Source: a virus
IMG/VR virus record: IMGVR_UViG_3300009506_000023
Span: 1,597 to 65,596 of that record
Reading direction: 5' to 3' (one strand)
DNA length: 64,000 nt
Made by a program: the position numbers and the translations under genes. Below are positions 61,450 through 62,990 of this stretch, piece by piece (position 1 is the stretch's first letter; every line of letters starts with the position of its first letter). The notes beneath the pieces were generated by a model that searched no databases, was not told the origin of the DNA, and was given only the letters and a program-made list of their open reading frames with translations.

Positions 61450-62990
61450 TTAGCCTCCTTAAATGGAATGCGGCTCGTGCCATTAAGTTTGGGGCAGAAG
61501 GGAAATGAATCCCCTCTGCCCCCGCTTCAGGAGGAGGAAAATAGAAGCTGTTTTTATAAACGCATTAACTAATACAGGAGTCTTCTTGACTTAGCTACTT
61601 TATGTGTCCGAACCAACGGCATCGTTAGAATAGGAAGTGTTTACGACATTCCCGAAAATTCGATGTTTTTCTGATCCTTACTTTCACTAATTTAAGCCCT
61701 ACTCATTTTATTTACTGGCCACCCTCTGCGATTTACAGAGACTCAAGGTTCCACCCTTCGGTCTTGGCCAAAACCTGGCATTTTATTTAACTTTATCTCA
61801 TATAGGACTCCCGTTCATAGATTAGCTGAACGAGACGCATCGAGAGCCTATGGAGTCGGTCTGCGATCTTCCATAGGGTCGAATCTTATATGATCTACCA
61901 GTAAAACTTTCGATAGCCCGATCATTAAGGAAGTTTGAAATGGATAAACATTACTTCGGATTAGGCAGTATTTGCTCATTGCTTCCTGCCGTTCACTCAT
62001 CCCTGAGGACTTTTCGCTATAAGCAGTACTAAGAGCCAACATTTACGGTCTCACGACACGACTAAACCATTTTACGTCTATCCCCTCCACCCCCGAAAGC
62101 AGATTCCCTCAGGGACGAAGACTTGCCCGTTTAGTTAGCGTTCTCCTGCCGCCCACCGCTCTATCCGATTGAATTAACTACCTGAAGTAACATTAGAGTA
62201 GCTTTGTGAAAGTGGTCGATTCCCTTACCGACAGGGGGTCTAAAACTGCCCGATACACCTACGTTTTATAAGGAGCCTAAAGTGTATCCGCTCTGCCATA
62301 TCGCTGACAAACTTACCTGTTTCCAACGTTTTCGAGGGTGACCGAAGTTAGCGACCTTCCGTGAGATTAGGCTAATGCCTACCCTTTGACGGATACCCTA
62401 GCTATGGGAGAGCTATAAAGGTGGGAAGGGGTACTGTATCGCTGGGTGGATGATCGTCTTATCCCTTCGCTTACTTTCGCTGGGTTCGTGATAACTTTGT
62501 GAGTTACCGAGATTCCTGAGCTAGCCCTGCTCGTGAATCCCTCCGCTTTACTGGCGAAGACCGTCTATCTGACCTTTACCGTCCTCTGATGGCTGAGTGA
62601 TTCTCCTTAATCGACTCGCTCTCTGAGAGTATCGGTGACCCTCGCTTTCAAGATCGGTATGTTCTGCGGGGGAGCCTCGCTCCGTGAGCCCTGGTTATTC
62701 CCCTCTCTGATATTAGAACTGGTTATGTTAAAGAACCTGTCCTGCCGAATAGTATCCTTATACTATCCTATATAATACTTTAGTAAATTATAGGGTGAAA
62801 GTAAAGCTTTTTTTTCTGTGTTCAGAAGAAAATCCCTCACGAATTTCAATGGTTTATAGTCTATGTCTAAATCCTGTATCACTGATAATCTTGATGGTTT
62901 TAGCTACCCTTTGCTGGAGTATCATGCTCTTTTAGCTTTTTTCTTAATGCTTTTTCAGCATTAGCCCTAAATGGAGCAAACCCACAGCTG
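61450..62990. other. 1.5-kb region lacking any convincing ORF, with GC content higher than the flanks and many short GC hairpins and tetraloop-like motifs; candidate structured non-coding RNA(s) or a cis-acting element
   Basis: The six-frame track shows a single 64-aa ORF across 1.5 kb, against about 95 percent coding density elsewhere. Motifs include ccccgaaagc, cttcgg, ccctcaggg and aatgctttttcagcatt. Confidence 0.4.
61481..61520. other. GC-rich hairpin ggggcagaaggg-aaatgaat-cccctctgcccc (11/12 bp)
   Basis: Read directly from the sequence. It sits about 45 nt upstream (gene sense) of the 61448 start and has no U-run. Confidence 0.4.

Follow-up and report, generated by a model that had tools for sequence, protein, structure and literature searches.

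A probable new family of large, structured non-coding RNA carried by uncultivated siphovirus-like phages

A gene-free stretch of ~1.45 kb, at positions 61449-62899 of a 64,000-nt segment of the IMG/VR virus record IMGVR_UViG_3300009506_000023, is very probably the gene for a structured non-coding RNA (ncRNA) of a new family that is absent from Rfam 15. The segment as a whole is referred to here as the window, and its positions serve as coordinates throughout. The stretch does not code for protein, and its core is conserved in four other, distantly related phage contigs, where sequence changes preserve a covarying secondary structure. A promoter-like element, conserved as well, lies directly upstream. 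The family is carried by a small clade of uncultivated siphovirus-like phages, and the window encodes a tape-measure protein, a DnaE-type polymerase fused to UDG, an ATP-dependent ligase, an SbcC-like ATPase and an AAA-ATPase/DUF2997/DUF3150 module. A first-pass annotation of the DNA had proposed a large structured ncRNA or a cis element at 61450-62990, and the ncRNA candidate is now supported by conservation and compensatory pair changes across five phage genomes.

The impression that ~1.5 kb of this tightly packed arm holds no convincing open reading frame (ORF) was confirmed by an ORF listing and by counting stop codons in six frames. The sole frame of at least 60 aa within 61449-62899 encodes 64 aa (61848-62042, minus strand). 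Stop-codon reassignment is a real possibility in phages, and read-through of TAG, TGA or TAA was considered and ruled out: each stop type occurs 3-20 times in each of the six frames, so that a recoded stop codon cannot rescue a gene, and single-stop read-through yields at most 135 codons. The extent first proposed was slightly too long. The stretch is gene-free up to 62899, and a minus-strand ORF of 55 aa (62900-63067) takes up the last 90 nt of the proposed range (62900-62990); it runs over the stop codon of the gene upstream and is called as a gene in a public assembly. The G+C content is indeed raised, at 0.46-0.51 over 61850-62750 versus 0.33-0.42 in the flanks, and amounts to 0.47 in the conserved core of the RNA. 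ARAGORN detected no tRNA or transfer-messenger RNA (tmRNA) in the whole 64-kb window, in keeping with the earlier inspection by eye. The genes flanking the stretch are small and all on the minus strand, and none of their proteins matched a function-annotated Pfam or PHROG family.

The proteins next to the RNA had no homologs of use for tracing it, and homologous loci were reached through the DNA around the many homologs of an AAA-ATPase encoded 8.4 kb downstream of the RNA. Four other phage contigs possess gene-free gaps of ~1.0-1.1 kb on the same strand, namely L003, an IMG/VR contig from metagenome 3300035698 (Ace Lake, Antarctica) whose ATPase is 65% identical as a protein to that of the window; L025, a 96-kb JGI contig (ATPase identity 61%); L029, from another phage sequenced in the window's own run (54%); and L030, from ENA (65%). 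Every one of these gaps is recovered with an nhmmer profile made from the window and L003 sequences, and a five-sequence profile matches the window at 62849-61648 with E = 1e-246, plus L003, L025, L029 and L030. No gene is called in the homologous gaps of L025, L029 and L030, and the longest sense-strand ORF is at most 66 aa in all five homologs. The RNA core measures 860-1,095 nt across the five (~1,090 nt in the window and 860-1,000 nt in the others). Between the window and L003, the RNA region shows 68% mean column identity, and the ATPase gene shows 69% nucleotide identity.

Each genome carries a single copy of the RNA, always in the same arm and 5-8 kb upstream of the shared AAA-ATPase/DUF2997/DUF3150 module. 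The immediate neighbor genes, by comparison, are unrelated among the five loci. Only 2 of the 11 flanking ORFs of the arm have a homolog in any one of the relatives with the RNA, in both cases at a distance from it, and two further ORFs have homologs only in other relatives. The homolog of the window's 90-aa downstream gene sits 4.4 kb from the RNA in L003, and the window's 181-aa gene has only a 46-aa match in L029, which lies on the other strand and ahead of that contig's RNA. One more ORF of the arm matches L030 and L029, again at displaced positions.

Secondary structure was evaluated in five-sequence alignments, in which invariant blocks are separated by segments fully different in sequence and length. 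These variable segments are helices. RNAalifold proposed 43 helices on the full alignment, and when the sub-domains A3-A6 were folded separately the four combined gave 122 predicted base pairs, ~72 of them changed on both sides. Slid pairing partners and 500 shuffles served as controls for A3-A5 (Table 1); in A3, slid partners produced 2-11 pairs changed on both sides versus the 23 observed. A curated, arm-by-arm check of helices P1, P2, P3 and P5 in the 5' domain revealed full complementarity with a different sequence in each homolog. For P5 the arms read GGGAUUC/GAAUCUC in the window, GGAUUA/UAAUCC in L003, AGGCUG/CAGCCU in L030, GGCCAC/GUGGCC in L025 and GAAUAG/CUAUUC in L029; MAFFT with RNAalifold misaligned the window's copy owing to a 95-nt insertion, and this helix was examined by hand. 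A covariance model of the 3' domain, R1, scored 196-211 bits in the five members and found nothing else among 53 loci. Overall, a core longer than ~500 nt that lacks coding capacity and many helices with compensatory substitutions give the element the character of a large ornate ncRNA. The covariation is clear, and no sign emerged of a frameshifted pseudogene, which the first-pass annotation had raised as a competing outcome.

Several of the hairpins first picked out by eye have to be read differently. Some plus-strand 'tetraloop' motifs are in fact stem arms, the RNA itself lying on the minus strand: 'ccccgaaagc' and 'ccctcaggg', taken for separate hairpins, are the two arms of one covarying stem, CCCUGAGGG/CUUUCGGGG (62091-62114), in the minus-strand RNA. 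A hairpin placed at 61481-61520 is real, with its position corrected to 61491-61522 and its setting to the non-conserved 3' tail, and a further one, 'aatgc-ttttt-cagcatt', lies inside the 55-aa ORF and outside the RNA.

The strand of the RNA is indicated first by its promoter. A scan for sigma-70-type promoters returned a minus-strand match at 62799-62772, with hexamers that can be read as TTCACC-16-TATTAT or TTTACT-17-TAAAGT. Directly upstream of the RNA, all five loci share a ~60-nt block consisting of a T-tract, an A-tract, CYTTTAMTTYCA, ~15-17 nt and TATAAT or a near match, and the same promoter block recurs at other intergenic sites of related loci. Its position suggests a transcription start at ~62764-62771. 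Furthermore, paired positions hold 79 G-U versus 17 A-C cells, the junctions are A-rich, the RNA is rich in purines (A 29-31%) and the neighboring genes are all co-oriented. We consider it highly likely from these features that the RNA is encoded on the minus strand. The motif AAAAANNCYTTWAMTTYCA occurs in two copies in the 64 kb, both on the minus strand (62796-62814 and 63823-63841). The copy at 63823-63841 stands ahead of the three small genes with which the leftward arm begins, and the intergenic region at ~63800-63950 (63787-63950) has the appearance of the phage's divergent early control region.

A number of observations weigh against reading the stretch as an independent, structured RNA of the minus strand. 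Five members are too few for R-scape-type covariation statistics, and the structures were predicted from the very alignments that were scored, which inflates the agreement. MAFFT with RNAalifold gave no consensus fold for 62356-62493 and 61911-62066. The folding z-score of the 3' domain is -1.5 for the RNA strand and -2.3 for the opposite strand; since single-sequence folding energy is unremarkable, the argument for more-than-chance structure rests on the comparison of homologs and not on thermodynamics. Similarly, RNAalifold energies favor the minus strand in only 2 of the 4 domains. As neither energies nor z-scores discriminate between the strands, the strand call depends chiefly on promoter, gene orientation and G-U excess. 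Lastly, a scan found no intrinsic-terminator-like site on the minus strand from the end of the core to the start codon of the next gene (61448), so the RNA could be the 5' part of a messenger RNA (mRNA).

Table 1. Positions of the RNA, its domains and helices, the folded sub-domain alignments and the inverted repeats (window coordinates unless a contig is named)
Feature	Positions	Strand	Description
Promoter-like element of the RNA	62772-62814	minus	A-tract, -35-like CTTTACTTTCA, -10-like hexamer
Conserved core of the structured RNA	61681-62768	minus	~1,090 nt; from nhmmer profile; mosaic of invariant blocks and variable helices
5' domain	62481-62768	minus	RNAalifold A6 and curated helices
P1 hairpin	62749-62766	minus	5' domain
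P2 variable hairpin	62715-62743	minus	5' domain
P3 hairpin	62669-62703	minus	5' domain; AUAA/GUAA internal loop
Window-specific insertion	~62551-62646	minus	5' domain; ~95 nt
P5 helix	62509-62541	minus	5' domain; GGGAUUC/GAAUCUC
Central domain	62057-62490	minus	~430 nt; A4 and A5
9-bp hairpin	62091-62114	minus	Central domain; conserved AAUCNG hexaloop
Linker domain	61911-62066	minus	Conserved blocks UAGUC, CGUAAA(U/A)G and CUGCCUAAU; hairpins proposed by full-length fold
3' domain	61681-61929	minus	Best conserved; multi-helix junction closed by RRGCY/RGCYU
Variable 3' tail	61523-61680	minus	Not alignable between homologs
Terminal GC-rich hairpin	61491-61522	minus	~12 bp, no U-tract; from sequence, fold and tail comparison
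Sub-domain alignment A3 (3' domain)	61681-61929		44 pairs in 8 helices, 23 changed on both sides; 92.3% paired, slid 30-50%; 0/500 shuffles
Sub-domain alignment A4	62055-62216		26 pairs, 16 changed on both sides; 91.3% paired, slid 51-62%; 0/500 shuffles on 4/5 measures
Sub-domain alignment A5	62210-62372		32 pairs, 19 changed on both sides; 87.9% paired, slid 30-43%; 0/500 shuffles
Sub-domain alignment A6 (5' domain)	62510-62770		20 pairs, 14 changed on both sides
Inverted repeat, arm 1	61472-61497	minus	26 nt, 92% complementary to 59449-59474, 1,997 nt apart
Second inverted repeat pair	59443-59466/57605-57628		24 nt, 88%; brackets next segment
L025 inverted repeat pair	6429-6451/7495-7517		23 nt, 100%; starts in RNA tail
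L029 inverted repeat pair 1	5548-5581/6465-6498		34 nt, 91%; starts in RNA tail
L029 inverted repeat pair 2	6568-6600/7616-7648		33 nt, 88%; consecutive to pair 1

The predicted RNA is organized into domains that combine invariant blocks with variable helices (Table 1). In the 5' domain, the invariant block ACAUACCGAUCU is conserved, single-stranded and holds an invariant, palindromic GAUC, which offers only a lead toward possible self-association of the RNA. The central domain contains the invariant blocks CUCGAAAACG, CGAUAUGGC, UUAUAAAACGU, CGGUAAG and CACAAAG. A long-range helix that the full alignment predicts appears to close it, between CACGAACC (62483-62490; CACGA-ACC) and GGU-UUAG-UCGUG (62057-62068); this helix covaries, reading CUUAGA/UCUGAG in L003 and CACGA/UCGUG in the window and L025. 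An 11-nt tetraloop-receptor interaction of CGAUAUGGC with CUGCCUAAU was considered and dropped: the partner of GGCRK is the MYGCC ahead of GGUAAG, and the changes between the two are compensatory. The 3' domain holds the invariant single-stranded segment A(U/C)AAAGUUAAA(U/C)AAA, and AUCGAAAG opposite GAGUAG may form an internal loop of the loop-E-like or bulged-G type. Further invariant blocks are GCGGAG, CGUAAAUG, AUCGAAAGYUUU, AYAAAGUUAAAYAAA and GAGUAGGGCUU. No complementarity targets of the invariant 17-mer were found within the window.

The 3' tail differs from the core in being variable. A pyrimidine tract, CCUCCUCC (61530-61537), resembles an anti-Shine-Dalgarno sequence, and CCUCC-type tracts are also present in the tails of L030, L029 and L003. 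The segment UUCUAUUUUCCUCCU (61530-61546) is complementary at 14 of 15 positions to the ribosome-binding region of the gene at 59483-59791, a level of agreement expected by chance according to our estimate. The tail hairpins of the window, L003 and L030 have an (A/U)UCAUU loop in common, and in L025 a hairpin followed by a U-run, read by eye, occupies the equivalent place. The terminal hairpin of the window probably serves to define the 3' end or to stabilize the RNA, and not as a classical terminator. The ends of the transcript and its processing, as given here, are predictions from these sequence features.

The tail is also where a series of long-range inverted repeats begins. Arm 1 of the first pair in the window overlaps the 3' arm of the terminal hairpin, and the pair brackets the next three genes after the RNA; by estimate, ~2e-5 such pairs are expected by chance. 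Apart from the two window pairs, the 41-kb arm has no long-range repeats of high identity. Bracketing repeats of 23-34 nt, spaced 0.9-2 kb apart, occur in 3 of the 5 phages, each pair with its own sequence and with unrelated genes between its arms, and L003 has a local 23-nt pair. The bracketed cassette downstream of the RNA in L025 includes a ribosomal-protein-L12-like gene (6763-7131). RNase III stems bracket 16S and 23S ribosomal RNA (rRNA), and the repeats of the window, L025 and L029 have the same geometry of long complementary segments. In contrast to the rRNA-operon stems, which enclose structured RNA, the phage repeats enclose protein-coding cassettes, and they are likewise unlike the RNase III sites of T7 early mRNA, which are local hairpins. 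The pair 61472-61497/59449-59474 may constitute an RNase III-type processing stem at which the RNA would be separated from the downstream mRNA. DNA inversion is an alternative explanation of the bracketing repeats.

These features of the tail bear directly on the possibility that the element is a giant cis-acting leader, or 5' untranslated region, that controls transcription, translation or stability of the downstream cassettes. Co-transcription of the RNA with the downstream genes is likely in the window, where the minus strand lacks an intrinsic terminator between core and start codon, the promoter of the RNA is the only recognizable one for these genes and the bracketing repeats begin within the tail; in addition, the CCUCC tracts of the tail could mask Shine-Dalgarno sequences. 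We nevertheless regard a leader as improbable. The downstream genes are unrelated in the five phages, which leaves no common target of regulation, and the conserved part stops 120-320 nt before the next gene, with a tail between them that is not conserved. The hairpin and U-run at the end of the L025 RNA also speak against it, and no leader or riboswitch known comes near a conserved multi-domain fold of 1.1 kb. With different downstream genes in every genome, the RNA is unlikely to be purely cis-regulatory.

The RNA was then compared with known families. Rfam 15 searched by cmscan at gathering thresholds gave no match in the whole window, L003, L025, L029 or L030, and searches up to E = 10 of window positions 61200-63100 and L025 positions 5230-6470 returned only unrelated noise. 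None of the families put forward as candidates by the first-pass annotation (GOLLD, ROOL, HEARO, raiA, group I and II introns, tmRNA and RNase P) was therefore matched. Identities as tmRNA, RNase P, 6S RNA or rRNA fragments were rejected, with no covariance-model or ARAGORN match. Very few large, intricate ncRNAs are known outside ribosomes, RNase P and introns, examples being GOLLD, ROOL, OLE, HEARO and raiA, and the literature searched contained no description of the present RNA.

In kind the RNA most resembles GOLLD and ROOL, with no relatedness to them by any test used. GOLLD (RF01998) is likewise very large, ornate, multi-domain and encoded by phages or prophages, and was first seen in lake metagenomes; it is similarly G+C-rich relative to its surroundings, with many covarying helices, E-loop-like motifs and no known function. 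The GOLLD covariance model found no match, even up to E = 10 in the segments of the window and L025 searched at that level. GOLLD is ~0.8 kb long and often adjoins tRNA genes in phage or prophage DNA. In contrast, the core described here is longer (~1.1 kb), belongs to a different phage lineage and lies in a 64-kb window without tRNA genes by ARAGORN. ROOL (RF03087) is also large, ornate and common in phage and prophage contexts, and its function is not known either, but its covariance model did not match; the phage RNA is roughly twice its size and was found in only five aquatic or environmental phage contigs. OLE, HEARO (the IscB omega RNA) and raiA share with the phage RNA a long, structured, intergenic nature that is known from covariation and elevated G+C. 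Their models did not match, and unlike HEARO and OLE the phage RNA adjoins no IscB/TnpB-type nuclease or OLE-associated protein gene, its neighbors being small ORFs without family matches.

Group II introns invite comparison through their similar size, multi-domain wheel, long-range closing helices, GNRA loops and A-rich junctions, and a ribozyme that splices itself or is mobile, whether a group II intron (ORF-less or permuted), a group I intron or what remains of one, would fit the size, the abundant GNRA-type loops and the multi-domain architecture of the RNA. Signs of mobile-element traffic would also suit such an origin, since in L025 the RNA comes right after an HNH endonuclease gene and ATPase homologs of the clade carry inteins. 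We judge this explanation very unlikely. No group I or II covariance model matched even at E = 10, including those for domain V and D1-D4, and no domain-V-like hairpin is visible. The 5' end of the RNA after the promoter reads AGGAUAGUAU, and the GUGYG of group II introns is not present. There is no reverse transcriptase and there are no flanking exons: the flanks differ in each genome, every copy has its own promoter directly upstream, and the RNA is present once per genome, always in the same arm. A group I intron was rejected in the same way, with no model match, an own promoter and unrelated flanks. The L025 gene encodes an HNH_3 endonuclease (4705-5232; proteins P0005 and P0018 are concerned), and the inteins in some ATPase homologs of the clade have HNH domains; together they show active selfish-element traffic in these phages.

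Two further explanations fare worse still, and the element is neither a DNA-only element nor a pseudogene or recoded gene. A cis element acting at the DNA level, such as a replication origin or a packaging or recombination site that yields no RNA, would account for a gene-free region near the divergent promoter region at the start of the early arm and for the long inverted repeats nearby. This is exceedingly improbable: compensatory changes keep pairing with many G-U pairs, the excess over A-C being meaningless for duplex DNA, the helices are short, numerous and nested, as in RNA, and the core holds no iterons, tandem repeats or AT-rich unwinding element. A decayed or recoded protein gene, for which the gene-like length and the tightly packed coding arm might be cited, can practically be dismissed, given all three stops in every frame also in four diverged homologs with conserved blocks, indels that are not multiples of three, short conserved blocks between covarying stems and no tRNA suppressor.

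The distribution of the family was traced in several collections. The RNA was not detected by nhmmer and model R1 in L026, L027, L031, L033, L037, L038, L054 and L056-58, loci in which the ATPase identity is at most 49% or too little upstream DNA is available. A blastn search in distant mode of 50,697 phage records found no similarity to the window stretch, and the flanking 181-aa protein found no relatives in IMG/VR. The 17-mer ATCGAAAGTTTTACTGG retrieved from IMG/VR one true member, the contig of L003, and six chance matches. A single metagenome scan gave 14 chance matches and no member with a pattern that demanded GAAAGTTTTAC, which was too strict, as 3 of the 5 members have GAAAGCTTT in its place. 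Looser two- and three-motif patterns found no new member in IMG/VR and the GTDB species genomes. An IMG/VR scan for the central-domain pattern AAAACGN{15,45}CGATAKGGCRKAGN{50,80}YCGGYAA returned 0 stretches, yet the L003 sequence matches it as a regular expression, which makes this result uninformative, and negatives from two-gap collection scans may be unreliable. Overall, the family is rare in the databases searched, and its distribution in metagenomes is under-sampled.

Exact-protein look-ups of the two neighbor genes retrieved nothing but Logan contigs of SRR14699975 that are 100% identical and are interrupted within the RNA. Two such contigs, both 100% identical to the window, end at 61973 and 62032 and leave 58 nt in the middle of the RNA (61974-62031) uncovered. 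This gap could reflect a drop in coverage, strain variation or a graph branch shared with the L029 phage of the same run.

Taken together, these comparisons allow a working model to be proposed. The RNA gene would occupy the minus strand from ~62768 to 61681 and continue as a variable tail as far as ~61490, and its own strong promoter, made up of the A-tract and sigma-70-like hexamers, would make it the second transcription unit of the leftward early arm. The transcript would adopt a fold of at least four domains with more than 120 conserved base pairs and invariant A-rich junctions. Its 3' end would probably be set by the terminal hairpin or a terminator, and perhaps also by cleavage of the long-range stem that brackets the next gene cassette; an early transcript cut at the bracketing stems may thereby also release the structured RNA.

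Whether such an RNA acts independently in trans is, in our estimation, an evenly balanced question. PMC12286853 describes RNA-only homo-oligomers of GOLLD, seen by cryo-electron microscopy (cryo-EM), and RNA-only cages of ROOL. By analogy, the phage RNA might be an abundantly expressed, trans-acting early RNA with a compact tertiary fold that serves as a scaffold, either as an RNA-only assembly like GOLLD and ROOL or as the core of a ribonucleoprotein (RNP) that binds or sequesters a host or phage factor. A trans-acting scaffold is favored over a cis-regulator or an intron. The scaffold or assembly mechanism remains tentative and is held with low confidence, as it draws on analogy and on the early, strong promoter, and the sequence gives no pointer to a particular biochemical function, which counts against it. 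More speculative, and in our view rather unlikely, is a new class of giant RNA machine of phages, which rRNA apart would be larger than any other ornate ncRNA of phages or bacteria. It would be made at the start of infection, be released by rRNA-like bracketing stems and either assemble by itself into an RNA-only nanostructure or, as a large ribozyme or the core of an RNP, manipulate a process of the host. Such a process could be, for example, the sequestration of a defense sensor, an RNase or a part of the translation apparatus.

Two other features of the same arm deserve mention. A second ORF-free stretch of ~1.6 kb (57054-58655) has a G+C content of ~0.50 and a strong strand asymmetry, with 17 copies of CTC[GT][AG]CG on the plus strand (CGYMGAG on the transcribed minus strand) versus 0 on the other strand, densest at 57650-58660; 4 of the 17 copies stand in a 28-nt tandem register at 58247-58361. 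This stretch lies just after a 264-aa gene (58655-59449), inside the second inverted-repeat bracket, and resembles nothing in the related loci. Possible roles are an array that binds protein, such as iterons or a centromere, or else a sponge RNA rich in repeats. Upstream of the RNA, two adjacent, overlapping minus-strand genes (63057-63386 and 63379-63786) encode Cys-rich proteins of 109 and 135 aa with CP..C-type motifs that matched no known family. Direct DNA repeats link the two genes (63056-63083/63375-63402 and 63261-63287/63619-63645), which appear from their sequences to be paralogs.

The rarity of the family in databases limits immediate experimental access to this RNA. Each known large ornate RNA has nonetheless opened new biology or structural principles, and a further class of ~1.1 kb with strong covariation is a concrete target for cryo-EM, chemical probing and functional work. 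The RNA is encoded by phages, stands behind an early promoter and is kept while its neighbor genes turn over, and the rRNA-like long-range stems beside it could reveal how early transcripts are processed and stabilized in these phages.

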